Source of the DNA: Chloroflexota bacterium
GTDB taxonomy: Bacteria; Chloroflexota; Dehalococcoidia; Lucifugimonadales; UBA3495
Assembly (NCBI GenBank): GCA_009837355.1
Contig: VXTR01000014.1
Coordinates: forward strand, 10,560-74,559
Direction: 5' to 3'
DNA length: 64,000 bases
Part shown: piece by piece, positions 4,931 through 26,137 of the stretch
Position numbering within the stretch: position 1 is the stretch's first letter
Layout of the letters: each line of letters begins with the position of its first letter
Translations under genes and position numbers: made by a program
The notes under the pieces: generated by a model
What the model was told of the DNA's origin: nothing
Seen by the model: only the letters and a program-made list of their open reading frames with translations
Database searches by the model: none

Positions 4931-4978
4931 GGCGTATCTCCGAAAGAGGTTTAATCTAAGGGAAAATAAGGCAGGGTT

Positions 4979-5007
4979 ATGCTACCCCTAACCGCCCGTA
5001 GTGTCAA
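4979..5007 (-). promoter_or_regulatory. candidate sigma70-type promoter for the PEPCK-like/aceB operon
   Basis: On the minus strand, TTGACA (5007-5002), a 17-nt spacer, then TAGCAT (4984-4979), about 45 nt upstream of the TTG start at 4930. Confidence 0.4.
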
Positions 5008-5085
5008 AATGGCGGGAGCGCCGGAATGGGGGTTTTCGGGACCGGGGTTTTCATCAGGTTCCTCCTGCGGTTGGTGGTGGTTGGG

Positions 5086-5358
5086 TAGCCTGCCTGAGGT
5101 CGGTTTCCGGAGTTCACTTCGGTCGTTGCCAGCCCCACGGCCGGGGGTGGTACGCAAGGGTTTATACCCTCCGAGTGGGTGAGCCTAATGAGAGCGTCCA
5201 GTTCAGAGGTAGCCACCGTTAAGATTCGCACGGGTCATTTGTTAGCCGTACACGACGCAGTGGGTAGCGCGCTGGAACAAGCGGGGTCCTGCGATTTGGG
5301 TTTGCTGACTGGTTGGTGGCCGTTGACGACCGTAGTGATGATGACCTCGTTGGCAGGC
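5086..5358. ncRNA. candidate structured RNA of unknown class (strand unresolved)
   Basis: 5086-5093 AGCCTGCC pairs with 5351-5358 GGCAGGCT, and 5095-5100 GAGGTC pairs with 5342-5347 GACCTC. Inside this, 5119-5125 CGGTCGT pairs with 5325-5331 ACGACCG and 5211-5216 GCCACC with 5314-5319 GGTGGC. Local hairpins occur at 5106-5121, 5128-5149 and 5156-5169. No credible ORF is present. The region lies in a 607-bp gene-free gap in a compact genome. Confidence 0.35.
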
Positions 5359-5389
5359 TGGGATGGATGGATTGTGATGTGCACAGGGC

Positions 5390-5419
5390 TATTATGAACG
5401 TATGTTCCGTTAGTTGTCA
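5390..5419 (-). promoter_or_regulatory. candidate sigma70-type promoter firing into the structured intergenic region
   Basis: On the minus strand, TTGACA (5419-5414), an 18-nt spacer, then CATAAT (5395-5390), inside the only AT-rich patch of the region. Confidence 0.4.
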
Positions 5420-5421
5420 AT

Positions 5422-5440
5422 AGGCCGGCGTCGCCGGTTT
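5422..5440 (+). terminator. small hairpin plus T4 (weak intrinsic-terminator-like element on the plus strand)
   Basis: CCGGC (5424-5428), a GTC loop, then GCCGG (5432-5436), followed by TTTT (5437-5440). On the minus strand it has no U-tract. Confidence 0.3.
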
Positions 5441-5454
5441 TCAGAATCAGGATT

Positions 5455-5514
5455 TTTGGGATTGGGGATGCCGCCCCGCCCCGGCTCCTAGATTCCCGCC
5501 GGCGCAAGAATGAT
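5455..5514 (+). repeat. composite element, copy L: G-rich/C-rich hairpin plus a degenerate REP-like palindrome
   Basis: TTGGGATTGGGGATGCCGCCCCGCCCCGGCTCCTAGATTCCCGCCGGCGCAAGAATGATG. It is collinear with copy R at 6084-6138, sharing the blocks TTGGG..TTGGG, GCCCC.CCCC, CT.GATTCC and GA.TGA.GATG. Confidence 0.5.
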
Positions 5515-5536
5515 GGCGGAGCAGGGCGCAGCGGTA

Positions 5537-6049
5537 TCAAGCGCGGCGTTGGGAGACGGGATGGACGTATGACCAGCCGCCGGAGGTGGTGCGGCGCCCG
5601 AGAGGAGTGTTGTCGCTGGTTTTGATGAGCTGCTCTACCGGCAGGGGCTGCGGAATCTTCTGCATCCGCATGACAATGAGCAAGTTAGTGCAGAGGCCCC
5701 GTTCTTCGAAATGGTCATCCCCAGGGAGACCGTACAAGCCCTCTTCGGTGGGTTGATACAATTCCAGTTCGCGTTCGATAAAGCTGCGTCCCTCGGCATT
5801 GATGGCGGTTTTGTCCCGCCAGCCCACGACGTCGCAGGCGTAATGAACCCGGTTCAAATCGGTAGTTATGGAGGCGTACAAGCGCACCGTATCCGATTCG
5901 CTGGGCGGATGCTCTCGGAACTTGGCGATTGCCGATTCGTGGTAAGGCTGGAGGTACAGCGGGAGGCGAGGATTTGCGCTCTGAGCGGTTACGATGTCGT
6001 CGAGCACCTCTTGGTAAATGCCGTTAATGAAGAGAGCATAATCGCGCAT
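5537..6049 (-). CDS. hypothetical protein, no family recognised
   Basis: 170-aa ORF with an ATG start, lower GC than its neighbours, and related composite repeats on both sides. No motif that I can name. Confidence 0.55.
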   Translation of the reverse strand: MRDYALFINGIYQEVLDDIVTAQSANPRLPLYLQPYHESAIAKFREHPPSESDTVRLYASITTDLNRVHYACDVVGWRDKTAINAEGRSFIERELELYQPTEEGLYGLPGDDHFEERGLCTNLLIVMRMQKIPQPLPVEQLIKTSDNTPLGRRTTSGGWSYVHPVSQRRA

Positions 6050-6074
6050 TGGGGTCTCCTAGTTTGGCCATGCA

Positions 6075-6095
6075 GGTTGGGGGTTGGGGGTTGGG
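6075..6095 (+). repeat. 3 x GGTTGGG tandem repeat (G-quadruplex-capable tract)
   Basis: The sequence ggttggg ggttggg ggttggg is read directly. It is C-rich on the transcribed minus strand, between the dCTP-deaminase-like gene and the 170-aa gene. Confidence 0.7.
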
Positions 6096-6107
6096 ACGGC
6101 CCCACCC

Positions 6108-6135
6108 CTGGATTCCGGCTTTCGCCGGAGTGACG
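6108..6135 (+). repeat. REP-like palindromic element (CTGGATTCCGGC-N4-GCCGGAgTGACG)
   Basis: It is nearly identical to the reverse complement of 30926-30953 and to 44285-44310. The inner inverted repeat is ATTCCGGC/GCCGGAGT. Confidence 0.75.
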
Positions 6136-6228
6136 ATGAAGTAGGCCGTAACCGCGTCCTTACGACGGGGTGGGAGAGCGGGGTAATCGCGATGTCTCCG
6201 ATTGGAGAGTCGGGCGGCGCTGTTGGCG

Positions 6229-7401
6229 CTAGCCGCCGTTACCTTCGAACATTGGCAACTGGCGGATCTGGACGTCGGGGGAGAAGTGCTTGCTGAGGAT
6301 GCGGCCGGCTTCTTGGTATGAGGAGCCGACTCTCGGGCCGTACCAACGGTCAGGCGGCTCCAGCATCTGCTCGAAAGCGAGGGTGCACACCATTTGTCCC
6401 GGGCCTACCATGAAAGGGACGTCATGGGCACGAACTTCCAGAACGGGCTGGATACCTCCCAACCGGCCGTTTTCGCCATAGCCGAATCCAGGGTCGAAGA
6501 AGCCGGCGTAATGAGTCCGGAGCTCGCCTTTGGCAGTTTCGTAAGCGGTCATCTCGGCGGCCAGCTGTGGGGGTATGCTCACGCTCTCTATGGAGGACAC
6601 CAGGTAAAATTCTTCGGGCTCCAAAATCAGGCTGTGGCCCCGGTCTGCGAAAACAGGTTCCCAGAAATCGCGGGGTGGGTAGCAATTGGTCAGGGACAGG
6701 TCAAGGAGGCTGCTGTTCCTCTTGGCCCGGTAACCTACGAACCCCTGCTCGGCAAGCAGATTGACGCTAAATCCAATTGAGTTGCTCTCGTCAATCTCGG
6801 ACGATTGCGCAGGTTGCCGGGTTTTGGTGAACAATATCGGATCACGCTCATGCGCGCTCCGCAAGTATCCCAACTCACACGTGGGATCGCCTTTGAACAG
6901 GCGAATTTGGTTCAAAGACAATCCCGTCTTAACCTTGACGGTGAATGACCTAGAGAACACCTCCAGGAACATACGCCCATGATAACCGTCGGCAACGTCG
7001 TCAAACCGTGGGCTGGCGTCCGTGATGACGCGGGTAAAGATATCCAGCCGGCCGGTGGAGCTCTTGGGATTAGTCTTGCCACGAATCCCGGGGGGCAGCT
7101 TAAGACCTTCGATGAGAGGGATCAGATAGGGGCGGTTCTTTTCCAGGATGGCGCCATCGCGCAGGTCCATTTCGGCGATGGCAAGGTCGGGCAACTTGTC
7201 CTCGACAGGCCCGGCGTAGGGCAGGAAACTGCTCTGCAGGACGTACGCCTTCTCGCCCAGCCTCAGGTCAAGGCTGGCCGGCTGGTAATTCTGATCGGGG
7301 ATCGTATATTCGCTGACGATGGCTCCATCCTGAACGGCTCGCCTAAGCCATTTGGTCGGCAGGATACCTCCCTTATCGATTTCGTTGATGCTTTCGAACA
7401 T
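6229..7401 (-). CDS. tandem-domain 2'-deoxycytidine 5'-triphosphate deaminase-like protein (long 'DCD' family, two dCTP-deaminase/dUTPase-fold halves)
   Basis: I take the start at ATG 7401 (MFESINE..), 7 nt after the upstream stop. In the first half, 'LDLRLGEKAY', 'GKTNPKSSTGRLDIFTRV' and 'GRMFLEVFS' align with E. coli Dcd VDVRLGN / DGRSSLARLGL / CIVLEF. The second half repeats the pattern ('ILEPEEFYLV', 'FFDPGFG', 'VLEVRAHD'). Confidence 0.7.
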   Translation of the reverse strand: MFESINEIDKGGILPTKWLRRAVQDGAIVSEYTIPDQNYQPASLDLRLGEKAYVLQSSFLPYAGPVEDKLPDLAIAEMDLRDGAILEKNRPYLIPLIEGLKLPPGIRGKTNPKSSTGRLDIFTRVITDASPRFDDVADGYHGRMFLEVFSRSFTVKVKTGLSLNQIRLFKGDPTCELGYLRSAHERDPILFTKTRQPAQSSEIDESNSIGFSVNLLAEQGFVGYRAKRNSSLLDLSLTNCYPPRDFWEPVFADRGHSLILEPEEFYLVSSIESVSIPPQLAAEMTAYETAKGELRTHYAGFFDPGFGYGENGRLGGIQPVLEVRAHDVPFMVGPGQMVCTLAFEQMLEPPDRWYGPRVGSSYQEAGRILSKHFSPDVQIRQLPMFEGNGG

Positions 7402-7408
7402 ATTGTGT

Positions 7409-7636
7409 TCAGTTTCGGGAGGGCGGCGTAAAGTACCTTGCTTCGGCAGACCGGAACTTGCCTTGGCAAGCCAAGCTGCAAAATACACCGTCAGCCAACC
7501 TGCCGGTCCCGATGCCACCACCTACATCGCTTCCGCACTCCGGGCAGGTCCGAGATTGCAAGCATGCTTCTTTATACAATCGAAGGCACTCACGCAAAGT
7601 AGCCAGGTCTTCGGACGCATCCCAATCGAATCCCAT
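7409..7636 (-). CDS. small FCS/TRASH-like zinc-ribbon protein
   Basis: 75 aa. 'CPECG-x16-FCSLAC' matches a C-x2-C...F-C-S-x2-C pattern. The gene is tightly packed, 10 nt after the upstream stop and 7 nt before the DCD-like start, and shares the lower GC of the DCD-like gene. Confidence 0.5.
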   Translation of the reverse strand: MGFDWDASEDLATLRECLRLYKEACLQSRTCPECGSDVGGGIGTGRLADGVFCSLACQGKFRSAEARYFTPPSRN

Positions 7637-7645
7637 GGCGGTCGG

Positions 7646-8611
7646 CTACTCGGGGGTTACGAGGGATTCGGCTGCTTGGCCGTTGAGGACGCGGAGGATG
7701 TTGGCGTAGGCGAAGTGGGCGGCGCGCAGGGCAGTTTCCTGGCTTTGGCCGGCCATGTGGGGCGTGATGATGACGTTGTCCAGGTCGAACAGGGGGTTTT
7801 CGGCCGGCGTTGGTTCCACTTCGAGAACGTCGAGGCCGGCGCCGGCGATTTTGCCCTCGGTGAGGGCGCGGTAGAGGGCCGCCTCGTCCACCACCGGGCC
7901 GCGACAAAGGTTGATGAAGAAGGCCGTTGATTTCATCAGGTCGAACTCGCGGTCGGACATCATGCCGCGGGTGCGACGGGTCAACGGGACGTGGAGGCTT
8001 ACAATATCGGAGGTAGCCAGCAGTTCGTCGAAACCGACGGGTTCCGCCTTGACGGCCTGCTGCACGTCTTCCGGAATGTCCTCTATGTCGTAGTAGATGG
8101 TACGGGTGTCGAAGCCGGTGAGCCGCTTGGCGACCTGGCGGCCGATGCGTCCCATGCCGATGATGCCCACGGTCTTGTCGGTTACTTCGGAGAGGTCGGT
8201 CTGGTAGAGGTCGCCCCGCCACTGGCGCTGCCTGGTGGTGGTGTCCCACTGGGCCATCAGGTTCCGGCTGATGCCAATCATCAAGGCGAGGGTTTGCTCG
8301 GACACGGAGATGGCGTTGGCGCCGCCGTTGTTGGCCACGGGGATGCCCATTTCCAGGATGGTCTCCAAGTCCATACGGTCGTAGCCGGCGCTGAGGGTCT
8401 GAATCAGCTTGACGTTGGGGCATTCGCGGAGCACCTCGGTGGTAACTTCGCTGGAGATGATGGCGTCGGCGTCGCGGCAGAGCTGGATTTGTTCGGCGGC
8501 GGGCAAGGTCCGGTCCACGACCGTAACCTCCACGTTATCGGGAGCATTGTCCAGCATCACGTCGGCGCGCGCGCCGACGCCGGTGAAATAGGCGACTTTC
8601 CATGAGGGCAT
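7646..8611 (-). CDS. D-isomer-specific 2-hydroxyacid dehydrogenase (PGDH/GyaR-like)
   Basis: 'VGIIGMGRIGRQVAKRL' is a Rossmann motif, and 'SDIVSLHVPLT..TRGM' and 'GAGLDVLEVEP' also fit. I take the start at MPSWKV (8611), which has an AAGGAG RBS. The longer ORF start at 8662 lies inside the promoter. Confidence 0.8.
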   Translation of the reverse strand: MPSWKVAYFTGVGARADVMLDNAPDNVEVTVVDRTLPAAEQIQLCRDADAIISSEVTTEVLRECPNVKLIQTLSAGYDRMDLETILEMGIPVANNGGANAISVSEQTLALMIGISRNLMAQWDTTTRQRQWRGDLYQTDLSEVTDKTVGIIGMGRIGRQVAKRLTGFDTRTIYYDIEDIPEDVQQAVKAEPVGFDELLATSDIVSLHVPLTRRTRGMMSDREFDLMKSTAFFINLCRGPVVDEAALYRALTEGKIAGAGLDVLEVEPTPAENPLFDLDNVIITPHMAGQSQETALRAAHFAYANILRVLNGQAAESLVTPE

Positions 8612-8661
8612 TTTTGTTGACTCCTTTGGGCCCTGCCTGGGAATGGCGCGCTGCAAGGGCA

Positions 8662-8689
8662 ATTATAGACGAGGGGCCGGGAGTGTCAA
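8662..8689 (-). promoter_or_regulatory. near-consensus sigma70-type promoter
   Basis: On the minus strand, TTGACA (8689-8684), a 16-nt spacer, then TATAAT (8667-8662), about 50 nt upstream of ATG 8611. Confidence 0.55.
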
Positions 8690-8806
8690 AACCACCCGCC
8701 GGGTTGCGCAACGGATAACGTTAGCCGGCTGGCAGGCTGCCGTTCACGCTGTTATGATGATGGCGCTTTCAGCGTATTCAAATCGATCGAGGAACCGGCA
8801 ACTGAC

Positions 8807-9226
8807 ATGACCCAACCATCCGATACTGACGCGCCCGCCCTGACTCCCGGCCTCATCGGCCGGCAGGAGGTGCTGGTTAGTGAACACAACGTCGCGCACC
8901 ACGTCCAGAAAATCAGCACGCCGTCCATGATTCAGGCCATGGAGCAGGCTTCTCAACTGGCCGTGCTGGACCATCTGCCGCCCGAACAATCCACCGTTGG
9001 CTTTGAGGTCAACATTCGCCACGTGGCCGGGGCCGACATCGGCGCTACCGTAGTCGCTACGGCGGAGTTGGAGCGTGTCGATGGCCGCTGGCTGTACTTC
9101 AAGGTGGAAGCGATGGACGGCGACCGCACCATCGGCGTGGGGACGCATCGCCGGGCCATCATCACGCTGCCGCCCGGCGCGAACAGCCGCGGCGGCCCCA
9201 ACGACAGCCACACCCACGGGGCGTAG
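8807..9226 (+). CDS. hotdog-fold thioesterase (fluoroacetyl-CoA-thioesterase-like)
   Basis: 139 aa. 'STPSMIQAMEQAS' and 'TVGFEVNIRHVAGADIGATVVATAELERVDGRWLYFKVEA.DG' fit the thioesterase superfamily pattern. Confidence 0.65.
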   Translation: MTQPSDTDAPALTPGLIGRQEVLVSEHNVAHHVQKISTPSMIQAMEQASQLAVLDHLPPEQSTVGFEVNIRHVAGADIGATVVATAELERVDGRWLYFKVEAMDGDRTIGVGTHRRAIITLPPGANSRGGPNDSHTHGA

Positions 9227-9277
9227 CGATTTTAAAGGGCATCAATCAAAGGGGCATCACAAAAGGAGCATCAGGCA

Positions 9278-9985
9278 ATGGAACCCATCATCCACAACGT
9301 CAAGGACTTCCCGGCCGGCGCCGTTGCGCGTCTGATCAGCGCGGACGACAACCCGAACCTGGTTACGCTGGCCTACTCGGTGATTGAGCCGGGCGGGACC
9401 AGCTCGCACCACATCCACGAGTGGGAGCACGAGGTGTATATCATCGAGGGCAGCGGCACGCTGGTGGCCGACGGCAAGGAGTATCCGGTGAAGGCCGGGG
9501 ACGCCATGTTCATCCCGCCGATGGTGGACCACGTAACGCGCAACGACGGCGGGCAGGGCGACATTCACCGCATCGAAATCAACCCGTTGTCCGCCTCGGC
9601 CGGCAACGCCCGGCCCGGCGGTTCCGAGCCCGGGGCCGGCACGCCGCCGGTCATCCGCAACCACGCCGACCTGAACGCCGAGACCGGGCACACCATGCTG
9701 GGCGGTCGGGACGGCTGCCCCAACTACCTGATGCTGTACAACGGCTACATGCAGCCGGGCGCGGTGAGCCATCCGGAAACGGGCGGCCACAACCACACCT
9801 GGGACCACACCGTGTTCATCCTGGAAGGCACGGGCACGCTGACGGTATCCGGCAAGGATTACACGGTGACGGCCGGCGACGCCGTGCTGGTGCCGCCGAA
9901 TGAGCATCACCAGTGGAAGAACGAGACGGAGGCGCCGATGCTGCGGGTAACGTTCAACGACATCGTGTCCGAGGGGCACGGCTAA
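9278..9985 (+). CDS. bicupin protein (two cupin_2 domains)
   Basis: The first cupin is 'HHIHEWEHEVYIIEGSGTL..G..Y.VKAGDAMFIPP...H'. The second is 'HNHTWDHTVFILEGTGTL..G..YTVTAGDAVLVPPNEHH'. Confidence 0.7.
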   Translation: MEPIIHNVKDFPAGAVARLISADDNPNLVTLAYSVIEPGGTSSHHIHEWEHEVYIIEGSGTLVADGKEYPVKAGDAMFIPPMVDHVTRNDGGQGDIHRIEINPLSASAGNARPGGSEPGAGTPPVIRNHADLNAETGHTMLGGRDGCPNYLMLYNGYMQPGAVSHPETGGHNHTWDHTVFILEGTGTLTVSGKDYTVTAGDAVLVPPNEHHQWKNETEAPMLRVTFNDIVSEGHG

Positions 9986-9992
9986 CCCACTG

Positions 9993-11300
<1,308 letters not shown>

Positions 11301-11302
11301 CG

Positions 11303-12043
11303 ATGACCGTGCTGACCGACACCGGCATGGCGATCCTGGCGGAGCAGGCGAAACGGCTGGCCTTGCATCTGTCCGGCCAGCAGTTGGAGCAGTTCGCCGA
11401 GTACACCAGGATGCTGGCGGCCGGCAACCGTCGGGCCAATCTGACCGCCATCACCGAGCCGGCCGAAGTGCAGGTTCGCCACTACCTTGATTCGCTGACC
11501 GCCGTGCTGGCCCGGGCTGACTGGCCCGACGGAATTCGCGTGGTTGACATTGGCGCTGGGGCAGGATTTCCTGGCGTTCCGCTGAAAATCGCTTTCCCCA
11601 GCATCAAACTGACGCTGGCGGAATCCACCGGCAAGAAGACGGCGTTTCTGGGGGAACTGGTGGAAGGGCTGGGGCTTGACGACGTGGAGGTCCTCACCGT
11701 GCGGGCCGAGGAACTGGGCCGAACCGAGGGCTACCGAGGGCAGTTTGACGTGGCCCTGGCGAGGGGCGTGGCGACGCTGCCGGCGCTGATTGAGTACGGG
11801 CTGCCGCTGCTCAAGGGACATGGGCATCTGCTGGCCTGGAAGGGCAGCGACGGGCCGGCGGAGGTCAAAGCGTCGGCCAAGGCGCTGGCGGAACTGGGCG
11901 GTGAAATCGCCGGGCTGCATTCGGTCAAGGCGCTGTCGCCGCCGCTGCCGGCGGAGCGTTGGATAGTGTCGGTGGAGAAGGTGCGACGTACGCCCGGACG
12001 CTACCCCCGTCGGGTCGGCGTGCCGGCCAAGCAGCCGCTGTGA
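11303..12043 (+). CDS. rsmG: 16S rRNA (guanine527-N7)-methyltransferase
   Basis: 'NLTAITEP.EV..RHYLDS', 'VVDIGAGAGFPG.PLKI' and 'LAES..KK..FL' fit the GidB/RsmG pattern. Confidence 0.85.
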   Translation: MTVLTDTGMAILAEQAKRLALHLSGQQLEQFAEYTRMLAAGNRRANLTAITEPAEVQVRHYLDSLTAVLARADWPDGIRVVDIGAGAGFPGVPLKIAFPSIKLTLAESTGKKTAFLGELVEGLGLDDVEVLTVRAEELGRTEGYRGQFDVALARGVATLPALIEYGLPLLKGHGHLLAWKGSDGPAEVKASAKALAELGGEIAGLHSVKALSPPLPAERWIVSVEKVRRTPGRYPRRVGVPAKQPL

Positions 12044-12055
12044 GGAGGGAACGCG

Positions 12056-13183
12056 ATGCCGCGGGCCGCTTTCATCTACGACGACGCGATGAGCCAGCAC
12101 GTGCTGCGGGCCGACCATCCCATGCGTCCCGTCCGGCTGCGGCACACCTACGAGTTGCTGGAGGCTTACGGCGCGTTTGACGGCGGCGAATCGCTGCTGG
12201 TTACGCCGAGTCTGGCGGACGAGGCCAGCGTGGGCGCGTTTCACTCGCGGGATTACATTGCTGCCGTGCGCACGTTCAGCCTGGGGTTGACCGGTTTCCA
12301 GCCGCAGCGGTTCGGGTTCGCCCAGGGCGGTGACAACCCGACCTACCCGGGTATGTACGAGGCGGCGATGCTGAGCTCCGGAGCCACGCTGACCGCCGCG
12401 CGGATGGTGGCCGACGGCGAGGTTACGGCGGCATTCAACATCAGCGGCGGGCTGCATCACGCGGCGGCGCGCAACGCCAGCGGGTTCTGCGTGTTCAACG
12501 ATCCGGTAATCGCCATCAAGTACCTGCTGGGGCGCGGGCTGCGGGTGGCCTACGTGGACATCGACGCGCACCACGGCGACGGGGTGCAGGATGCCTTCTA
12601 CGACGAGCCGCGGGTGCTGACCATATCGGTCCACGAATCGGGGAGGTATCTGTTCCCAGGCACCGGGTTTGCCGGCGAAACGGGCAGCGGGGAGGGCGCC
12701 GGCTATGCGGTCAACCTGCCACTGTATCCCTACACGGACGACGAGACGTACCTGGACGCGTTTGAAGCCGTGGTGCCGCCGCTGTTGCAGGCGTTCAATC
12801 CCGACGTGCTGTTGACGCAGTTGGGCATTGACTCCTACCACACCGACCCGCTAACGCATTTGCAGGTTACGAGCCGGGGGTTCATCGCCGCGGTGGAACG
12901 GCTGGGCGGGCTGGGCTACCCGTGGCTGGCCACGGGCGGCGGCGGGTACGACATCGGCGCGGTGGCCCGCTGCTGGACGCTGGCCTACGGCGTGATGTGC
13001 GGCGCCGAGTGGCCCGACCGCATCCCGACACCGGCAGTAGAACGGCTGGGGCGCACTGCTCTAAGGGACACAGAGATTCCTGAGATACCGGAGCATATCC
13101 GAGCTGACGCGCGGGCGCTGGCGGCGGAGAGCGTCGCCGCAATCAAGGACGCGGTGTTTCCGGTTCACGGGTTGAGGGCGTAG
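12056..13183 (+). CDS. histone-deacetylase-family protein (AcuC/acetoin-utilisation type)
   Basis: 'GGLHHAAARNASGFCVFND', 'YVDIDAHHGDGVQDAFY' and 'VLTISVHE' are present. Confidence 0.85.
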   Translation: MPRAAFIYDDAMSQHVLRADHPMRPVRLRHTYELLEAYGAFDGGESLLVTPSLADEASVGAFHSRDYIAAVRTFSLGLTGFQPQRFGFAQGGDNPTYPGMYEAAMLSSGATLTAARMVADGEVTAAFNISGGLHHAAARNASGFCVFNDPVIAIKYLLGRGLRVAYVDIDAHHGDGVQDAFYDEPRVLTISVHESGRYLFPGTGFAGETGSGEGAGYAVNLPLYPYTDDETYLDAFEAVVPPLLQAFNPDVLLTQLGIDSYHTDPLTHLQVTSRGFIAAVERLGGLGYPWLATGGGGYDIGAVARCWTLAYGVMCGAEWPDRIPTPAVERLGRTALRDTEIPEIPEHIRADARALAAESVAAIKDAVFPVHGLRA

Positions 13184-14031
13184 CCCTGCCGTCCCGGCGG
13201 CACGCAACGCACCGCAGTGGTGATGAATCCGCTGTGTGCAACCATCCGGTGGGCCGGGCGAACGCTGCGTCGGGTTACGTTCCAGCCGCGCAGCATGGTT
13301 TCGGCGGTTTCGATGCGGGCGAACCGGCCGTCGTCCTGGAGGGCCAGGACCAGTTCGTGAACCTGGAGAACAGTGGGCAGAAAGGACAGCAGGATGCCGC
13401 CGGTGTGCAGAGCGTTGGCGGCGGCGTTGAGGGCGCGCCAAGGCTCGGGCAGGTCAAGTATCACCCGGTCAACGTCGGATTCTGCGATGCCCTCCGCAAT
13501 GTCGCCGACTTTGACCTCCCACCGCGAGGTATCGGGGATGACCGACTGGACGTTGGACTTCGCTTTGGCAACGACTTCGCCGTTGATTTCGTAGGAGCAG
13601 ACCCGTCCGGAGGGGCCGACGGCGCGCAGCAGTCCGGTGGTGAGCGCGCCGGAGCCGAGGCCGGCTTCCACCACGGTGGCGCCGGGGAATATGTCGGCCA
13701 TGGACACGATGTTGCCCAGGTCCTTGGCGTAGATTACCTGCGGGCCGCGAGGCATGAGGCGCACGTAATCGCCCAGGGTGGGCCGGATGCCCAGGAGAAC
13801 GTGGCCCCGGTTGGTGGTGTACCAGCCGCCGACGGGCTGTCCGATAACGTCATCCAAAGGGATGTATCCCAGGTGGCAGTGGAACTCCTGGCCGGCGGTG
13901 AGGGTCTGCAGGTAGGCCCGGCCCTTGCGGTCGAGGAACAGGGCCAGTTCGCCGGCCTCGAAAGGGCTCACGCTGGCCTCGTCCTGAGCCTCATTGTGGC
14001 CGATGGGGTTGCTGTCGTCGGTGTCGTGCAT
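13165..14031 (-). CDS. trmI: tRNA (adenine58-N1)-methyltransferase (TrmI/GCD14 family)
   Basis: 'IYAKDLG.I..ADIFPGATVVEAGLGSGALT', 'DRVILDLPEPW' and 'RP.HRMVAHSGF' are present. Confidence 0.8.
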   Translation of the reverse strand: MHDTDDSNPIGHNEAQDEASVSPFEAGELALFLDRKGRAYLQTLTAGQEFHCHLGYIPLDDVIGQPVGGWYTTNRGHVLLGIRPTLGDYVRLMPRGPQVIYAKDLGNIVSMADIFPGATVVEAGLGSGALTTGLLRAVGPSGRVCSYEINGEVVAKAKSNVQSVIPDTSRWEVKVGDIAEGIAESDVDRVILDLPEPWRALNAAANALHTGGILLSFLPTVLQVHELVLALQDDGRFARIETAETMLRGWNVTRRSVRPAHRMVAHSGFITTAVRCVPPGRQGYALNP

Positions 14032-14052
14032 TGCTGTATTATACCGGGCGTT

Positions 14053-14451
14053 ATGATGGAACGGTTATTCACGCTGGAAGAGGCCAATGGGCTGGTGCCG
14101 TGGTTGGAAGAACGGTTTGACGCAATGTCGCCGCTGCGGGCTGAGCTGGTGGAGCGTCAGGAAACGCTGCTGTCGCTGCTGCGTCGCCGGCGCAGCAACG
14201 GCCACTCCAGCAGCGAAGGGGAGATAGCGGCGGCTGAAGGCGAAGTAACCCGGCTGACCCGGCGCTTGCAGGACGCGGTAAAGGAGATAACCGACCGGGG
14301 CATCCAGGTACGGGATATCGGCCGGGGGTTGGTGGATTTCCCGTCCAACCGTGAGGGTGAAATCGTGTACCTGTGCTGGCAGCGGGGCGAGGCCCGGATT
14401 GACTGGTGGCATCCGACGAATACGGGGTTTGCCGACCGACGGCGGCTGTGA
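14053..14451 (+). CDS. DUF2203-family protein
   Basis: The real start is MMERLFTLEEAN at 14053, inside a longer shadow ORF. 'GLVDFP....GEIVYLCWQ.GE..I.WWH....GF..RR' is the typical family signature. Confidence 0.6.
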   Translation: MMERLFTLEEANGLVPWLEERFDAMSPLRAELVERQETLLSLLRRRRSNGHSSSEGEIAAAEGEVTRLTRRLQDAVKEITDRGIQVRDIGRGLVDFPSNREGEIVYLCWQRGEARIDWWHPTNTGFADRRRL

Positions 14452-14479
14452 TACGCCGGAAGCTGTCTGGAAGGGGACT

Positions 14480-15220
14480 TCAGCGGCCTCTAATCTCCGC
14501 CAGGGCGGCGCGGATTTCGTCGGCGTGGACGGCGTAGAAGGTGCCAACCACCGTGCCGCCGGCCTCCGCTGCGCGCGCCGCCGCCCGCACCATGCCGATT
14601 ACCTCGCCCTGCGTATTGAGCACCGGGCCGCCACTGTCGCCGGGGTCGATGGCGGCGTCCATCTCCAGGTTGCGCCCGTAGCTGTCGGGGCCGAAGTTGG
14701 TTATCTGGGAAAGGATGCCGGCGTTGGCCTTGGGCGACCCCACCGTCCCTTCGCGCTTGACGCCGCTGCCGGAGTAGCCCAGCGCCAGCAGCGGCTTGGC
14801 GATGTCGTCGATGCTGGCGTCGCCCAGAGACAGCGGATCTGCGAACGGCGCCAGCTGGGCCTGGTCCGTATCGTAGTGGAGCAGGGCTACGTCCCGCCGT
14901 TGGTCCACACCGACGACCGTCGCGTTGAGCACCGAAGCGGACGCCTGACGCACCAGCACTTGCTCGCGTCCCTCCACCACGTGGGCCGCCGTGACGATAT
15001 AGCCCGGCTCGAGCAGCCAGCCGGTGCCGTGCTGCCGGTTGGTGGGGTCGATGTAGAACACCGACGGACGGGTTTCATGGTACAGGCGGTTCAGGTCCGG
15101 CGCGGCGGAGGATGCCACTGCGGTTGCTACGGCCTGCTCAGCCCGTACTTCCAGTTGAGCGCCGGTGGGCGCGCAGGCGGCAATCGCCAGCGCTGCCACC
15201 GTCGCCAACGCCCGCATCAT
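14480..15220 (-). CDS. secreted/lipoprotein trypsin-like serine protease (S1 family, no PDZ)
   Basis: The signal with lipobox is 'ALAIAAC'. The catalytic triad context is 'TAAHVV', 'DVALL' and 'GDSGGPVL'. Confidence 0.7.
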   Translation of the reverse strand: MMRALATVAALAIAACAPTGAQLEVRAEQAVATAVASSAAPDLNRLYHETRPSVFYIDPTNRQHGTGWLLEPGYIVTAAHVVEGREQVLVRQASASVLNATVVGVDQRRDVALLHYDTDQAQLAPFADPLSLGDASIDDIAKPLLALGYSGSGVKREGTVGSPKANAGILSQITNFGPDSYGRNLEMDAAIDPGDSGGPVLNTQGEVIGMVRAAARAAEAGGTVVGTFYAVHADEIRAALAEIRGR

Positions 15221-15234
15221 GGGGACAGGGATCT

Positions 15235-16734
15235 TCAGATGAACCGGGCCTGGGCGCGGGCCTCATCGGCGTAGTCGATATAGACGGTGATGACCTCGCT
15301 GAAGAAGTCCACGGCCTCGACGCCCTGCTCGCGCTGGCCGACGCCGGAGGCTTTGAGGCCGCCGAAGGGCAGGTGAACCTCGCCGCCCAGGGTCGGGGCG
15401 TTGACGTGAACCATGCCGGCGTCCACGGTGTTGATGTAGCGGAATGCGCGGGGGATGTCGCGGGTGTACACCGAAGAGGACAGGCCGAACTTGACGCTGT
15501 TGGAAATCTCCACGGCGTGTTCCAAATCGCGGGCGCGGAACACGGTGAGCACCGGGCCGAAAATCTCCTCGCGAGCGATGCGCATATCGGGGGTTACGTC
15601 GGTGAAGATGGTGGGTTCCACGTACCAGCCTTCATCGTAGATGCCGCCGGCCAGGGTGCGGCCGCCGAAGGCCACCGTCGCGCCCTCGTCGCGGCCCACG
15701 GCGATGTAGTCGCTGACGGTGCGCTGCTGGGATTCGCTGGACAGGGGGCTGACGTCGATGCCGTCCTCGATGCCGTCGCCAATGGTTAGTTTGGAGGTGC
15801 GTTCAATCAGCTCGGCCATGAACTGGTCGTACACGCCGTCCTCGACGATGACGCGGCTGGTGGCGGTGCAGCGCTGTCCGGTGGAGCCGAAGGCGCCCTG
15901 CACGATGCCGCCCAGGGCTTTGTCCAGGTCGGCGTCGGCCAGCAGGATGACGGCGTTCTTGCCGCCCATTTCGGCCTGCACCTTTTTGAGCAGGGACGCG
16001 CCGCGGGTGTAGATCTCGGTGCACAAATAATAAATAAAAAAAAAAAAGATGCCGGCGACGTCCGGCGACTCCACCAGGGCGTTGCCGACGCTGCCGCCGG
16101 GGCCGGTAATCAGGTTGAGGACGCCGGGCGGCACGCCGGCTTCCTCAAACACCTCGGTGAGTTTGACGGCGCACAGGGGCGTGCTGGAGGCCGGCTTGAA
16201 GATGATGGCGTTGCCGCAAATCAGGGCCGGCGCCATCTTCCAGGCGGGTATGGCGATGGGGAAGTTCCACGGGGTGATGATGCCCACGACGCCCAGGGGC
16301 CGGCGCACGGTGTAGGCGACGGTGTTGGGCAGCTCGGACGGGGTAGTGTAGCCGAACATCCGGCGTCCCTCGCCGGCGGCGTACTCCATGATGTTCATGG
16401 CCCGCTTGACCTCGCCGCGGGCGTCGGGCAGGGGTTTGCCCTCCTCCTCGGTGATGGTGCGGGCGATTTCCTCGGCGCGGCGTTCCATTATCTCCAGCGC
16501 CTTGAACAGCACCTGGGCGCGGACGGGGGCCGGCGTGTCGGCCCAGCCGGGGGCAGCCTCGGCAGCGGCGGCCACAGCGCGCAGCGTGTCCTCCGGGTTG
16601 GACAGCTGGAAGTGTCCCAGGAGGCGGTCCTTATGGGCGGGGTTATAGACGGGGTAGGTGCGCCCGGAGTCGGAGGGCGTCCATTCCCCGTTGATGAAGT
16701 TGTGGTGAGTCTGCACGGCGTTGGTAGTAGTCAT
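15235..16734 (-). CDS. NAD(P)-dependent aldehyde dehydrogenase carrying an anomalous A/T-only patch in place of the F-T-G-S motif
   Basis: I take the start at MTTTNAV (16734). 'FINGEW', 'ITPWNFP', 'EMGGKNA', '[13 protein letters not shown]' and 'EEIFGPVL' are intact. The expected 'I-SFTGSxxxG' is replaced by '[10 protein letters not shown]'. Confidence 0.8.
16025..16047. other. 23-nt A/T-only tract including a 12-nt homopolymer (A12 on plus, T12 in the mRNA sense)
   Basis: aaataataaataaaaaaaaaaaa is read directly. It is flanked by coding sequence above 65% GC and is in frame. Confidence 0.95.
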
Positions 16735-16924: not shown

Positions 16925-17635
16925 ATGCCACACCCCCTCGCAACCGCGCTCCGCCAGGCCCTGGCCGACAACGGAGACTCCGCCAAAGCCGAGGGCATGC
17001 GCCGGTACATGAAATCGGAGATGCCCTACCGCGGCGTTCAGACTCCCCTGCTGCGGCGAATATGCCGGGACCTATTGCTCAGCCACCCTATCGAGGAGAA
17101 GGACGTGTGGTACGGGGTTGTCCTGGACTTATGGAGAAGAGCCGAATACCGGGAGGAACGCTACGCGGCCCTGGAACTCGCCGGCGCCAAACCCCACGAG
17201 CCCTTCCGTACCCTCGATACACTGCCTCTCTGGGAAGAGCTAGTCGTCACAGGCGCTTGGTGGGACTATGTCGATGGCATAGCCTCTCACCGACTCCGCG
17301 AACTCCTGGAGAGATTCCCCTCTGAAATGGCCCGTGAAATGCGGCGCTGGAGTCGGGACGCGGATAAGTGGAAACGTCGCTCCGCCATCATCTGCCAGCT
17401 CAACCGCAAGGAGCAGACTGACGTCACCCTCCTGTTCGACTGCATCGACCCCAATCTCGCTGATCCCGACTTCTTCATCCGCAAAGGCATTGGGTGGGCC
17501 CTTCGCTCCCTGGCCTGGACCGACCTGGACACTGTCGAGTCCTACATAGCTCGCAACGAAGGCCGTGTCAGCCCGCTGAGCCGTCGAGAGGCCCTGAAGA
17601 ACGCCGAGAAGATTCGCAGTGGAAGAGGGCGGTAG
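16925..17635 (+). CDS. DNA alkylation repair protein (AlkD-like HEAT-repeat family)
   Basis: 'AEGMRRYMKSEMPYRGV', 'EERYAALEL', 'WWDYVD', 'WKRRSAII' and 'FIRKGIGWALR' are present. Confidence 0.75.
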   Translation: MPHPLATALRQALADNGDSAKAEGMRRYMKSEMPYRGVQTPLLRRICRDLLLSHPIEEKDVWYGVVLDLWRRAEYREERYAALELAGAKPHEPFRTLDTLPLWEELVVTGAWWDYVDGIASHRLRELLERFPSEMAREMRRWSRDADKWKRRSAIICQLNRKEQTDVTLLFDCIDPNLADPDFFIRKGIGWALRSLAWTDLDTVESYIARNEGRVSPLSRREALKNAEKIRSGRGR

Positions 17636-18576: not shown

Positions 18577-20280
18577 TTATTCCGGCGGGAACAGCTCGTC
18601 GATTTCCCGCTGCATACGATCGGCGTCGTTTTCCGCCAACGATGCCAGTCCGGCCGGCGCGCCGGCAATGGCCATATCGGCGTAGAACGACTCGTCGTAA
18701 TCGCGGGGGCGGACCACCACCGGCATCGGGACGGCGTGGCCGAACACCAGCGCCTGCTGCTTGCCGTCCAGACGGGACAGGACACCCCGCAGCTGGCCGG
18801 CGTCCCGCGCGCCCATGAGGACGGCGTTCATGTCCCGGTCGTCGTTGAGGGCGCAGGAGAGGCGGGTTCCCAGCTGGCTCATCACCTCGGAGTCGATGCC
18901 GCTGGGCCGCTGGTCAACAATCATCAGCGTTACGTTGTACTTGCGCAGCTCGCGGGCGATGGAACCGAAAATGGTCTGCGAGGCCACTTCCGGCGTCAGG
19001 AACTTGTGGGCTTCTTCGATGAATATGACCAGCGGGCGCGGCTCGTCGCCCTGGCCGCCGTCGGCGAGTTCCTTGCGCCGCACCCAGGTCTCGTGGATGC
19101 GCCGGGTCAGCAGGTTGCTGACCAAGACGTAGGCGGCGGTGTTGCGCCCATACTGCCCGAATTCCAGCACCACGTGATTGCCGTGTTGCAGGTTTTCGAT
19201 GATGCCGCCGGCGCTGCCGCTGCCCTCGCCCTGGTCGGCCAGGAACCCGAAGCGACCCCACGCCGACAGCCGGCGATGCAGCGTTTGCAGGGCGGCCAGG
19301 TTCACGCCGATTTCGTTGGCCAACTCGCCCACGTCGGCGCCGCTCAACGGCAGGAACGAACGCAGCCACTGGCCGCTGCCGTAGTGACGCTCCAGGTTCC
19401 ACGCCGTCGCAGCCGCCACTTCCGACAGGTTCAGCAAGTCTCGCAGTACCTCGATGTCGGCCGGCTCAATCTCGTCGTAGCCGATGCGCACCACGCCGTC
19501 CGGCGTGATGCCGCGACGCCGGCTGCTGGCCTCGTCCAGGGTGAAGGTAACCACTCGGCTGGGGAAGAGCTGCTTGAGTCCCTTGACCTGACGGCGGCGG
19601 TCGTTGTCCTGCCCCTGCCAGCCGTACTCGCTCTCCATGTCGAATACCAGCGACACGGCGTCGCCATCCTTGACCAGGCCGGCCAGCAGCATCCGGGCCA
19701 GGAAGGTCTTGCCCGACCCCGACGCGCCGAACACGCCCACCGAGCGTTTTGCCAGTTCCTCCAGATCCAGACGTACGGACGCCGCCTCCATGCCCTGGGG
19801 TGAACCGAGGGCAAAGGCCGTCTCCCGTTGGACGCTGAACACCGCGTCGATGTCCGCCTGAGATGCCGCGTACACCGGGGCGAAGTGCTCGGGTATGGTT
19901 TTGGCCGCTTCCGACGCAGCCATGCCGCTGCCTTCGGTTGGCGCGGTCATGCTGGGCATCACCGACAACTGACCGTAGGCCATGGTGCCGGCCATCACGT
20001 CGGTTATCAGTCCGTCGGCGCTTTCGGCAGTACCCCTGACCGGTGGGAAATGGCGCAGGCTGTCGTCCACGGCGCGCAATTCCAGGTCGGTTACCACGCC
20101 GAAGTACCGCTGACGTCGGCCCTGGACCGTCACGAAGGAGCCTACGGCGATGTCCTCCACCGAGGCGCCGGCGTCCAGCCGCACGTCCAGCCCCCGGGAC
20201 AGCGACCCGCCGACCACCAAGCCCAGGCGGCGCAAGCTGGCGGAAAGGTATCCGTCGCCAATGCCGTTGCCCAGCGTCAT
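18577..20280 (-). CDS. HerA-like (FtsK/HerA superfamily, DUF87-type) ATPase with an N-terminal HAS-barrel-like region
   Basis: Walker A is 'GVFGASGSGKTFLARML' and Walker B is 'LVIFIEEAHKF'. 'MIVDQRPSGIDSEVMSQLGTRLSCALNDDRD' is also present. The ATG at 20280 overlaps the upstream stop (ATGA). Confidence 0.8.
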   Translation of the reverse strand: MTLGNGIGDGYLSASLRRLGLVVGGSLSRGLDVRLDAGASVEDIAVGSFVTVQGRRQRYFGVVTDLELRAVDDSLRHFPPVRGTAESADGLITDVMAGTMAYGQLSVMPSMTAPTEGSGMAASEAAKTIPEHFAPVYAASQADIDAVFSVQRETAFALGSPQGMEAASVRLDLEELAKRSVGVFGASGSGKTFLARMLLAGLVKDGDAVSLVFDMESEYGWQGQDNDRRRQVKGLKQLFPSRVVTFTLDEASSRRRGITPDGVVRIGYDEIEPADIEVLRDLLNLSEVAAATAWNLERHYGSGQWLRSFLPLSGADVGELANEIGVNLAALQTLHRRLSAWGRFGFLADQGEGSGSAGGIIENLQHGNHVVLEFGQYGRNTAAYVLVSNLLTRRIHETWVRRKELADGGQGDEPRPLVIFIEEAHKFLTPEVASQTIFGSIARELRKYNVTLMIVDQRPSGIDSEVMSQLGTRLSCALNDDRDMNAVLMGARDAGQLRGVLSRLDGKQQALVFGHAVPMPVVVRPRDYDESFYADMAIAGAPAGLASLAENDADRMQREIDELFPPE

Positions 20281-23694: not shown

Positions 23695-25077
23695 TTGTCC
23701 AGTCAGCGCGAAACCGCACGCGGATTCCCCGCCCGGTTCAACATCCCCGGCACCCGTGTGTTGGCCCTGGTCTTAGCCACGGCCGTGGTTGCCTACCTGG
23801 CCTGGAAAATCGGGCAGTCGCCTCCACAGGCCCTGCAATTCGCCTTCAACGGCATCGCAGTGGGGGCGGTGTACGCGCTGCTGGCCATGGGCTTCACGCT
23901 GGTGTACAGCACCGTCTGGTTCTTTGACCTCTACTACGGCGCGGCGGCGGCCTTGGGCGCCTACGGGGTGTTCTACCTCCGTACTGCCACGGCCCTGGGC
24001 AGCCGCGCTGACGTCAACAACGTATATGTCAACGCCGTGTTCGCCGCCGTAGTAGGTGGTGTCGTCGCCTGGGTTCTTTATACCTTACTGCACCCACGGC
24101 TGCGCGGCCGATTTACTCCGAACACGATTGGCGTGGCGAGTGGCCTGCTGGGAGGGGGAGCCGGAGCGTACACCGGCATAGTCCTCGCATTCCCTGAGAA
24201 CCTCCACCTGACCTTGAGCCCCGCCATCGGCGTTGTGGTGGCGGCGGCGGCCATCGTTGTCCCGTTCTGGGCGGTTCAGACTTTCGTTCCCAACATTCGC
24301 CTTTCGCGTTTTACCGCCATCGCCGGGCTGCCTGCCGTCGTCATCGGCGCATGGTGCGGCTACCTTACCGCCGGCGCTCCCGGCGCGGGTCTCTACCTCA
24401 GCTGGGCCGTGTCGTGTCTGCTGGCCGGATGCGTCGGTCTCGCCCTGTATCGCGGCCTCTACATGTACATGCGCGAGCGGGCGCGTTCGCCCCTCATCAT
24501 GCTGGTGGCGTCGCTGGGTATCCTGCTGGCCGTCGCCGCGTTCATCGTTATCGTTTTCGAGGCCGCTCCTCGTCCGTTGCCCACCGCCTTCGGCAGCGAG
24601 ACGTGGAAGATTGCCGGCGCTCGCATCAAGGGCTTCAATATCTTCGCCATCGGGGTAGCCCTGGCCGGTTTCGCCATTCTGTGGCTGCTACTGAAGCAGA
24701 CCTCGTTCGGACGCGCCGTCCGCGCTATTGGCGACGACGAGGAAGTCTCCAAGGTGGTGGGCATCAATACCACCGTAATCATAGCCGGGGTCTTCTTCAT
24801 CGGCGCGATGTACGCCGCCCTGGCCGGCATCCTCACCGGGCACGACACCGCGGTGCAGCCGCGCATGGGCCTGCTGCTGTTGCTCAAGGGCTGGATCGCC
24901 TCCGTAGTTGGGGGCATCGGCAACCTCTACGGAGCAATCGTCGGCGGGTTCGTCCTGGGCGTTGTCGAGCAATTCGGCATCTGGGACCTGGCCGGGGAAT
25001 GGAAAGACGCCATCGCCTTTGTGCTGTTGATACTGTTCCTGTCCTTCTGGCCCCAGGGCCTGCTGCCGCGGAGGTGA
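23695..25077 (+). CDS. livH: branched-chain amino-acid ABC permease (LivH family) with extra transmembrane insert
   Basis: 'GIAVGAVYALLAMGFTLVYS', 'SFGRAVRAIGDDEEVSKVVGIN' and 'G.GNLYGAIVGGFVLGV.E' are present. The start is uncertain. I prefer TTG 23695 with a GAGGA RBS, because ATG 23623 sits in the loop of the preceding hairpin. Confidence 0.75.
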   Translation: MSSQRETARGFPARFNIPGTRVLALVLATAVVAYLAWKIGQSPPQALQFAFNGIAVGAVYALLAMGFTLVYSTVWFFDLYYGAAAALGAYGVFYLRTATALGSRADVNNVYVNAVFAAVVGGVVAWVLYTLLHPRLRGRFTPNTIGVASGLLGGGAGAYTGIVLAFPENLHLTLSPAIGVVVAAAAIVVPFWAVQTFVPNIRLSRFTAIAGLPAVVIGAWCGYLTAGAPGAGLYLSWAVSCLLAGCVGLALYRGLYMYMRERARSPLIMLVASLGILLAVAAFIVIVFEAAPRPLPTAFGSETWKIAGARIKGFNIFAIGVALAGFAILWLLLKQTSFGRAVRAIGDDEEVSKVVGINTTVIIAGVFFIGAMYAALAGILTGHDTAVQPRMGLLLLLKGWIASVVGGIGNLYGAIVGGFVLGVVEQFGIWDLAGEWKDAIAFVLLILFLSFWPQGLLPRR

Positions 25078-25081
25078 TGCT

Positions 25082-26137
25082 TTGCCGGTGGACATGCAAC
25101 GCATCCGGGAGCTGCCCGCCCTGGTGCGCAACCCCCGCGAGATGGCTCGGCACGCCCGGAGCAATGTCGAACTGTGGGCCAACATCCTGGTCATCGGAGG
25201 GGCCATCGCGTTCATGCTGTGGCAAGGCGCCGGTTTCGCCGTCATCGTGGGCACGGTATTCGCCATCTGGGCCATCCTGTCCGTCAGCCTGAACCTGGTG
25301 GTGGGATTCACGGGCCTGCTCTCCGTGGGGCATATCGGCTTCTTCGGCGTCGGGGCCTACACCATGGCCATTCTGACCTCCAGCCCGGAATACGAGCAGC
25401 TGCGCACCGAGGCCATCCCCACCTTTGGCTGGCCCTTCTTCGCTGCGCTTCCGGTGTGCGCTCTCCTCGCCGGTCTGGCCGCCATCATCGTTGGCATCGT
25501 ATTCAACCGTTTCCGGGACGACATTTTCGTGCTGGTATCCTTCGGCTTCGCCATCATCTCCTTCAACGTCTTTCTCAACTGGCGGGCGGTTACCCGCGGG
25601 GCTTTCGGCATCCACGAAATTGCCCGTCCGGAAATCGGTGACTGGAGATTCGACGGCGATGTTGAGTTTCTGCTGCTCTGCCTGGCGTTCCTCGCCGTGG
25701 TCATGCTGATTTCCTGGTTCGTCGTATCATCATCCTTCGGGCGCGTACTGACCGCCATCCGTGAGGACGAGCAGGCCATCGAGGTGTTTGGATACCAGGC
25801 CACCCACTACAAGCTGGCCGTGTGGGTAATCTCCGCCATGATGGCCGGCATCGCCGGCGGCTTGTTCAGCAGCTGGACCACTTTCATCGACCCCAACTCC
25901 TTCATCCTGCTGGAGTCGGTGCTGCTGGTGGCCATCGTGATTCTCGGTGGGCTGGCAACCATTTGGGGTTCCCTGCTGGGCGCAATGGCCTTCGTCCTGC
26001 TGGAGGAGGGGATGCGTTTCATCCCGTTCCTGCCCACCGAGTATATCGGCCAGGCCCGGCAGGTCGTCCTCGGCATTTTGTTGGTGCTGCTGATGCTGTT
26101 CCGGCCCCAGGGCCTGGTCGGGAGGTATCGATTGTGA
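25082..26137 (+). CDS. livM: branched-chain amino-acid ABC permease (LivM family)
   Basis: 'LNLVVGFTGLLSVGHIGFFGVGAY', 'SSFGRVLTAIREDEQA' and 'LFRPQGLVG' are present. Confidence 0.85.
   Translation: MPVDMQRIRELPALVRNPREMARHARSNVELWANILVIGGAIAFMLWQGAGFAVIVGTVFAIWAILSVSLNLVVGFTGLLSVGHIGFFGVGAYTMAILTSSPEYEQLRTEAIPTFGWPFFAALPVCALLAGLAAIIVGIVFNRFRDDIFVLVSFGFAIISFNVFLNWRAVTRGAFGIHEIARPEIGDWRFDGDVEFLLLCLAFLAVVMLISWFVVSSSFGRVLTAIREDEQAIEVFGYQATHYKLAVWVISAMMAGIAGGLFSSWTTFIDPNSFILLESVLLVAIVILGGLATIWGSLLGAMAFVLLEEGMRFIPFLPTEYIGQARQVVLGILLVLLMLFRPQGLVGRYRL

Follow-up and report, generated by a model that had tools for sequence, protein, structure and literature searches.

On two-colour sequencing machines the four bases are told apart by two dyes, A being seen in both, C in one and T in the other, while G is dark (PMC11140927). 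It follows from this coding that two signals emitted together are read in a defined manner: C together with T is called A, G leaves any accompanying base X as it is, and A prevails over whatever it is combined with. The poly-G artefact of these machines has the same root cause as the anomaly described here, namely the use of G as the dark state (PMC11140927); in our case, on the other hand, dark G's of the native sequence are overwritten, C plus T becomes A, and the product is A/T-rich. Mixed (polyclonal) clusters, in which likewise two templates share one cluster and the mixture is called, are a second related phenomenon (Kircher et al., 2011, PMC3163567). The second template that we propose, however, would derive from the same molecule by truncation and would not be an unrelated neighbour, so that the flanks would be clean and the event would recur at the same genomic site, with an outcome made deterministic by the two-colour coding. 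Limited literature searches for a description of this exact artefact returned general accounts of mixed clusters only (PMC3163567).

The Illumina P5 adapter has the sequence AATGATACGGCGACCACCGAGATCTACAC (PMC7331155). In its grafted form it consists of ten T's (T10) followed by AATGATACGGCGACCACCGAGA, dU and CTACAC, the complement of which is GTGTAGATCTCGGTGGTCGCCGTATCATT (PMC13584795); the T10 spacer thus lies on the 5′ side of the P5 oligos attached to the surface (PMC11123353, PMC13584795), and a read running off the adapter is expected to continue into A's. Contamination of contigs by adapter read-through has in common with our locus the adapter itself, the strand logic, the start of an A-run after the 29 nt of the reverse complement of P5 (P5-rc) and an A-run in the usual length range of 10–13 nt. 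Ordinary contamination, however, is a literal copy of the adapter, usually found at a contig end and preceded by index and read-primer segments, whereas here the adapter is merged with the gene, internal, in register and visible as substitutions only.

A 12-nt homopolymer in a coding region is the usual substrate of phase variation. The present locus resembles the phase-variation loci of host-adapted bacteria only in having such a homopolymer within an ORF; in contrast with them, its tract shows neither conservation nor length polymorphism, is wrongly placed within the gene and appears to have a technical origin.

The aldehyde dehydrogenase gene and its A/T block

The window, i.e., the whole stretch of 64,000 nt that was analysed, contains an aldehyde dehydrogenase (ALDH) gene whose product matches the Aldedh profile over its full length (positions 1–461 of 461, E = 4.7e-163). 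The catalytic strings quoted in the original prediction are indeed present in the protein: GQRCTA and EMGGKN are invariant in an ALDH alignment of 20 sequences, and EEIFGPVL also occurs in the window protein. Sequence, profile score and motif strings confirm that an A/T-only patch sits inside an otherwise intact ALDH.

On the plus strand, positions 16021–16050 read gcacAAATAATAAATAAAAAAAAAAAAgat. The pure A/T run extends over 23 nt (16025–16047) and terminates in twelve A's (A12). As had been noticed, it is the sole run of such size: elsewhere in the window, which has 63.3% GC, A/T runs reach at most 9 nt and homopolymers of A or T at most 6 nt, and the chance expectation for A/T runs of at least 23 nt is about 4e-6. 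The patch replaces S-F-T-G-S-T-E-I-G, so that the F-T-G-S-x-x-x-G motif of the cofactor site is absent from the window ALDH, which has FFFFIYYLC instead. Frame and length are unchanged, a claim borne out by the lack of indels with respect to the orthologues.

The limits of the patch had to be redrawn. While the A/T run was correctly recognised, the altered block comprises 16014–16046, two substitutions outside the A/T run (16014 G>T and 16015 G>C) having been overlooked. Similarly, the loss of the motif stands, but ten residues change and not nine, namely S230F, T232F, G233F, S234I, T235Y, E236Y, I237L, G238C, D240E, and L241I. Except for these ten residues at 230–241, the window ALDH is identical to MYD47007.1, the canonical protein of the same population, which is present in NCBI, ENA and Logan. 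GenBank lists the patched protein under MXZ90120.1, and one contig alone, 78,691 bp in length, encodes it; since the protein is deposited, the patch belongs to the public record and is no product of the preparation of the window. The coordinates of the individual features are collected in Table 1.

Table 1. Features of the ALDH gene and of the altered block (window coordinates).
Feature	Position	Strand	Basis or remark
Intact, in-frame gene of the aldehyde dehydrogenase (499 aa)	15235..16734	-	Pfam PF00171, alignment with 19 orthologues, residue differences
Block with 21 substitutions, very probably corrupted	16014..16046		Mismatch lists against the spanning same-population contigs L084, L085 and L089
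GTGTAGATCTCGGTG, identical over 15 nt to the reverse-complemented 3′ end of Illumina P5	16007..16021	+	Proposed mispriming site
CACAAATAATAAAT, equal to native CCGATTTCGGTGCT summed in two colours with the last 14 nt of P5-rc, GTCGCCGTATCATT	16022..16035	+	14/14 predicted
A12, poly-A overlay on native GCCGGTGAAGGA	16036..16047	+	Putative read-through of the T10 spacer; 16047 is a native A

Several ways of generating the block were considered and rejected. C-to-T deamination is unable to yield it, as already argued in the original prediction, and the substitution list contains many transversions. Gene conversion from a local donor was discarded, since all other A/T runs of the window are 9 nt long or shorter. 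By what is generally known of DGR systems, adenine mutagenesis of this type would have the wrong direction, the changes running here from every base towards A/T. Finally, a shifted alignment, in which the window C-T-E-I is placed on the native S-T-E-I (25 nt for 13 nt, plus a 12-nt deletion), was abandoned because the in-place model presented below fits exactly. Scans of the window for tRNAs, Rfam families and tandem repeats gave nothing bearing on the patch.

The locus in relatives and in same-population assemblies

The closest database proteins are 94% identical to the window ALDH and of equal length. In the alignment of 20 sequences, G-I-S-F-T-G-S-T-E-I-G-T-[D/E/G] is found in every orthologue without any indel, and the orthologue DNA at the motif reads TCC TTC ACC GGC AGC ACC GAR ATC GGC. 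Among reference genomes and metagenomes, [I/V]SFTGSTE[I/V]GT is encoded in all the 78 related loci in which the motif segment could be located, and the longest homopolymer in this 36-nt segment is 3 nt. The A/T patch, whose conservation in orthologues had been named as an argument against both an artefact and a pseudogene, is shared by none of the 78.

Among solved structures, the best match to the canonical allele is the E. coli succinate-semialdehyde dehydrogenase GabD (PDB 3jz4, E = 5.5e-108, end to end). The two have in common LSFTGSTEIG, the catalytic Cys region, and the EMGGKN/ELGG region; compared with GabD, the window version lacks the motif, apparently only through the artefact. From its sequence, the gene itself, with the canonical SFTGSTEIG, is a normal NAD(P)-dependent aldehyde dehydrogenase and presumably functional. 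Going by related database records, the host is a sponge-associated Dehalococcoidia (Chloroflexota) symbiont.

These comparisons bear on the suggestion that the T12/A12 tract constitutes a slipped-strand contingency locus, toggling the ALDH on and off via +1 or -1 frameshifts. A 12-nt homopolymer placed inside a coding region and unique in the window invites this reading, but the tract is absent from the five spanning same-population loci described below as well as from the 78 related ones, where homopolymers at the site do not exceed 3 nt. Furthermore, the essential cofactor-binding motif is replaced, so that the in-frame state would already be defective, and the A-run can be accounted for by read-through of the T10 spacer. 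The probability that the tract acts as a contingency device is, in our opinion, practically nil.

The neighbouring genes, for a protease and a pantoate ligase, led to the same population in public data. The contigs spanning the site are canonical at five loci belonging to three independent assemblies, i.e., NCBI GCA_009841575.1 (VXLO01000003.1), the ENA assembly of SAMN12347672, and Logan SRR9841447, all reading TCC TTC ACC GGC AGC ACC GAA ATC GGC. They differ from the window at 23–24 positions over ~21 kb, 21 of which fall within 16014–16046. The lesion is therefore not reproduced in NCBI, ENA or Logan, and the patched protein occurs on one contig only. The canonical FTGS-encoding sequence, which the original prediction expected reads to show in the case of an artefact, is in substance what these three assemblies contain. 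Outside the block, the comparison of the window with other samples, with the divergent strain L220 and the edge of contig L218 set aside, reveals no more than four SNPs, dispersed over the sequence, and an indel of 18 nt, and no further mismatch cluster was seen in the 49,234 window positions compared with public contigs.

A separate assembly of SAMN12347679 yields contigs (L086, L090, and L213) which are 100% identical to the window over 4480–16013 and 16047–49360, L086 matching up to 16013 and L090 from 16047 onwards. This assembly breaks at the patch, inside the P5-like 15-mer: L090 ends with ...GGCACCG and L086 begins with GACCTCTACAC, and both contig ends at the break carry canonical sequence. 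The native sequence expected at the locus in Ircinia DNA is TCCTTCACCGGCAGCACCGAAATCGGCACCGACCTC.

The possibility that the ALDH motif is truly replaced in the sample population, making the gene a cryptic pseudogene or the enzyme inactive, has to be weighed against these data. Such an allele would have gathered 21 substitutions in 33 nt, as compared to 0 in the other ~45 kb aligned with same-sample contigs (4480–49360), from a window that offers no A/T-rich donor sequence. It is true that the frame is kept, that the patched sequence stands in a deposited MAG (MXZ90120.1) and that the break in the matching-sample assembly could reflect two alleles; nevertheless, the site is canonical at both contig ends of this break, in all the other assemblies and in the 78 relatives, and the substitutions are predicted exactly by the adapter and the two-colour coding (see below). 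With a lesion private to one assembly and wholly explained by a model of mixed signals, the pseudogene reading becomes exceedingly improbable. MXZ90120.1, having ten wrong residues in the cofactor-binding site, is unfit as evidence of a degenerate ALDH. Of the three options that the original prediction had offered without choosing among them, it is the artefact that is favoured by the canonical spanning contigs and by the fit to the dye union.

The block as a dye-channel union of gene and P5 sequences

An adapter-derived 15-mer adjoins the A/T run; it had escaped notice in the earlier description and is key to the mechanism. The native sequence at 16007–16021, GTGTAGAGGTCGGTG, shares 13 of its 15 positions with the 3′ end of P5, including all of the 7 nt that pair with the P5 3′ terminus. 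The substitutions 16014 G>T and 16015 G>C convert GTGTAGAGGTCGGTG into GTGTAGATCTCGGTG. The resulting 15 nt are the longest adapter match in the window, compared with a maximum of 14 nt in 200 simulated windows, and this value drops to 10 nt after repair. The A12 tract, in turn, starts at 16036, that is, 29 nt after 16007, where P5-rc ends. Literal adapter is limited to 15 of these 29 nt: the following 14 nt (CACAAATAATAAAT) match the adapter at 5 of 14 positions and the gene at 4 of 14 (counted by eye).

We modelled the region as the channel-wise OR of the native sequence and a strand carrying P5-rc and then eleven A's (A11), starting from 16007. This model gives 0 mismatches with the window over 66 positions, reproducing all the 21 substitutions and predicting none falsely. 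In the overlay proper (16007–16047), 41 of 41 positions equal the dye union; every base of this interval equals the dye-channel sum of the true gene sequence and P5-rc with at least 11 A's. Between 16022 and 16035, all six {C,T} pairs are called A and every {G,X} pair is called X, and the bases of CACAAATAATAAAT that match neither gene nor adapter are all A and all located at {C,T} pairs. Since this middle segment of 14 nt was not used in framing the hypothesis, it represents an independent test, for which the probability of a chance compatibility with a fixed 14-mer overlay is P = 7.6e-6.

As to the controls, an overlay with A11 or A12 leaves 0 mismatches and one with A10 a single mismatch, at 16046, while offsets of 1 to 6 nt in either direction produce 15–23 mismatches. 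Among the 24 base-to-channel assignments, a fit with 0 mismatches is obtained only with the two that amount to the real chemistry, and the next best leaves 9. The minimum reached in 10,000 shuffles of P5-rc is 7 mismatches; overlaying P7-rc leaves 9 and poly-A alone 12. Mixing in a four-colour style, with one of the two bases (native or adapter) called at each position, was rejected as well, as it explains only 8 of the 14 middle positions.

An exact 15-nt match to P5-rc with an A-run at the correct 14-nt offset would also be left by plain adapter contamination or by an in-silico chimera, i.e., by an adapter read spliced into the contig with its signals unmixed, and adapter plus poly-A is common among public contigs. 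Metagenome contigs were scanned for the 15-mer followed by 14 nt and A10, which returned at least 120 matches, 83 of which, in 80 loci, were examined. Among the matches listed, the literal tail GTCGCCGTATCATT is present in 60 of 83, the A-runs directly after P5-rc measure 10–26 nt, and 80 of 83 lie at most 200 nt from a contig end. In viral contigs (IMG/VR) the literal tail accompanies 98 of 98 matches. Overall, the A-run following P5-rc or P7-rc in public contigs is most often 10 nt long and frequently 11–13 nt. True contaminants therefore carry GTCGCCGTATCATT or near variants of it, unlike the 14 nt found here between the 15-mer and the A-run, and are mostly positioned at contig ends, whereas the patch is 16 kb into the window with true sequence on both sides. 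Moreover, the block preserves length, consists of substitutions only and goes back to native sequence in register, and the long shared k-mers on which a join in a de Bruijn graph depends are absent here. Contamination with unmixed signals is accordingly quite improbable.

A length-preserving change private to one record might instead have arisen after assembly, by polishing, gap filling or a file error unrelated to the chemistry, and the contig break in the independent assembly is a place where a gap filler might act. However, the 41/41 fit is specific to the real chemistry and points to the optical stage, and we know of no software process that yields the dye-channel union of a native sequence and an adapter. 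We consider corruption or editing of this kind very improbable.

As this case illustrates, an error of adapter origin can escape adapter screening, only 15 literal bases being left, and mimic an in-frame mutation. The dye-union test provides a simple means of recognising such blocks.

Internal mispriming as a proposed origin

The patch is, with high probability, a base-calling artefact arising from the overlaid signals of the gene and of P5-rc/poly-A, which was then assembled into the deposited MAG contig. The register of the overlay is that of the native 13/15 near-match, the sequence upstream of 16007 is undisturbed, and the native sequence resumes in register. Taken together, these features argue against an unrelated neighbouring cluster and against an in-silico chimera. 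The probable cause is that the grafted P5 oligo primed wrongly at this internal site.

In the mechanism that we propose, the surface oligo 5′-T10-P5-3′ would misprime on the internal P5-like site during bridge amplification. The product would be a truncated amplicon belonging to the same cluster, which would keep the P7/Read-2 end and in which T10-P5 would be joined straight onto the gene. Up to the site, full-length and truncated strands would give an identical signal in Read 2; past it, the truncated strands would add P5-rc and then the A's of the spacer, the full-length strands would add the gene, and the instrument would call the union of both dye signals. Clean gene sequence would be back once the truncated strands end at the spacer. 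Read 1, on the other hand, would be unaffected, as the Read-1 primer site would be missing from the truncated strands. By recurring in every such cluster, the event would let identical wrong k-mers accumulate, and the assembler may have kept the artefact path in one sample.

Several points count against this reading. The T10 spacer predicts 10 A's, and 11 are needed; the 11th A (16046) may result from a weak lagging signal called A over a dark native G. In addition, clean reads should account for about half of the coverage at the site, or more, and yet the artefact path was assembled.

Mispriming would in any case demand more than a suitable sequence. A second, equally P5-like site at 43881–43895 (CACCAAGTTCTACAC) displays no anomaly in the assembly, which indicates that a near-match to P5 is insufficient by itself. 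The model also requires a two-colour sequencing machine (NextSeq, MiniSeq or NovaSeq), and the present dataset may have come from a NextSeq 500. A sister study from the same laboratory employed NextSeq 500, HiSeq 4000, and NovaSeq instruments, together with seqpurge and metaSPAdes.

Whether this patch stands alone is a matter on which we can offer only a tentative view: it is conceivable, if somewhat doubtful, that it is one instance of a systematic class of errors, hitherto undescribed as far as we found. If so, sites resembling the 3′ ends of flow-cell oligos would be misprimed, and two-colour reads would gain in-register, length-preserving, A/T-enriched blocks, which could go unnoticed in adapter screening, persist through assembly and end up in protein databases as plausible in-frame variants. 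Were the phenomenon general, public MAGs could be searched by computer for dye-union blocks and corrected. The biological weight of the locus itself is low, the ALDH of the symbiont being ordinary and, by all indications, intact; what it offers is a correction to the database entry MXZ90120.1 and an example of how such an error can pass for a mutation.

Two scans of IMG/VR with the expected IUPAC signature retrieved literal adapters only, and no second OR-degraded instance. About 15 IMG/VR contigs, on the other hand, have genomic sequence fused straight to literal P5-rc and A10–15, without an index or read-primer segment in between; this direct connection of genomic sequence and P5-rc is the junction expected from internal P5 priming.

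Adapter sequence in public viral contigs

The literal 29-nt reverse complement of the Illumina flow-cell oligo P5 (P5-rc), followed by A10-15, was found at an internal position in about 15 public IMG/VR contigs, five of which are listed in the table. In these contigs genomic-looking sequence abuts the insertion on both sides, and the index/read-primer segment is absent beside it. Such internal P5-rc and A-runs in deposited viral genomes are probably adapter-mediated chimeric joins. In the window itself, a second site resembling the P5 3′ end was detected on the plus strand; no anomaly is seen in the assembly at this position.

Features located in the window and in the IMG/VR contigs
Feature	Sequence	Positions	Strand	Remark
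HerA-like ATPase (HAS-barrel / DUF87)	window	18577-20280	-	567 aa
MFS transporter gene	window	37849-39360	+	
Second site resembling P5 3′ end	window	43881-43895	+	CACCAAGTTCTACAC, 2 mismatches, 3′ heptamer perfect
Internal P5-rc + A-run	L233	5141-5179		
Internal P5-rc + A-run	L238	6738-6776		
Internal P5-rc + A-run	L241	13132-13170		
Internal P5-rc + A-run	L280	600-638		
Internal P5-rc + A-run	L318	2630-2668		

The aldehyde dehydrogenase (ALDH) family and its neighbourhood

An orthologue of the window ALDH from a Geodia barretti entry (P0019), deposited as 'alpha-ketoglutaric semialdehyde dehydrogenase', is locally scrambled over a stretch of about 25 aa (VRTAQHRCVHRAPPAGSGGHHYSLE; columns ~138-162 of alignment A1), where all the other aligned members share one common sequence. 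This stretch looks like a compensated double frameshift, which would make P0019 a further public ALDH record with an error in its sequence.

The interval that separates the ALDH gene from pantoate ligase forms a small island whose position is conserved and whose gene content varies. In the relative L081 (a 3.7-Mb contig; 7149-9900, compared with 16925-17635 of the window) it holds a tandem duplication of a small-gene set, which contains AF2212-like and PIN-domain (toxin-antitoxin-like) pairs; instead of this set, the window population carries one DNA-alkylation-repair (PF08713) gene. The HerA-like ATPase gene is adjoined on its upstream side by an unannotated gene for a 197-aa protein, and the pair keeps the same arrangement in the relatives L081 and L083.

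MFS transporter tail and base composition

At its C-terminal end the MFS transporter has a His/Asp-rich tail (…HGHGDHGHHDDHGHDDHGHGHDDHGHRHH), for which an imperfect 18/36-nt repeat at 39274-39348 (+) codes. Within this repeat, 18 nt (6 aa) are absent in the other-sample contigs L215, L216, L217, and L219, so that the protein measures 497 aa in these contigs vs. 503 aa in the window; the difference looks like a real repeat-length polymorphism. A Fur/ZnuA/ABC metal-uptake cluster adjoins the transporter gene, and the tail is possibly metal-binding.

In the composition profile, a strong negative AT skew (-0.267) is observed at 24001-26000. Since this segment overlaps the plus-strand branched-chain amino-acid ABC permease genes (BPD_transp_2), the skew can probably be attributed to T-rich hydrophobic codons and not to an unusual feature.
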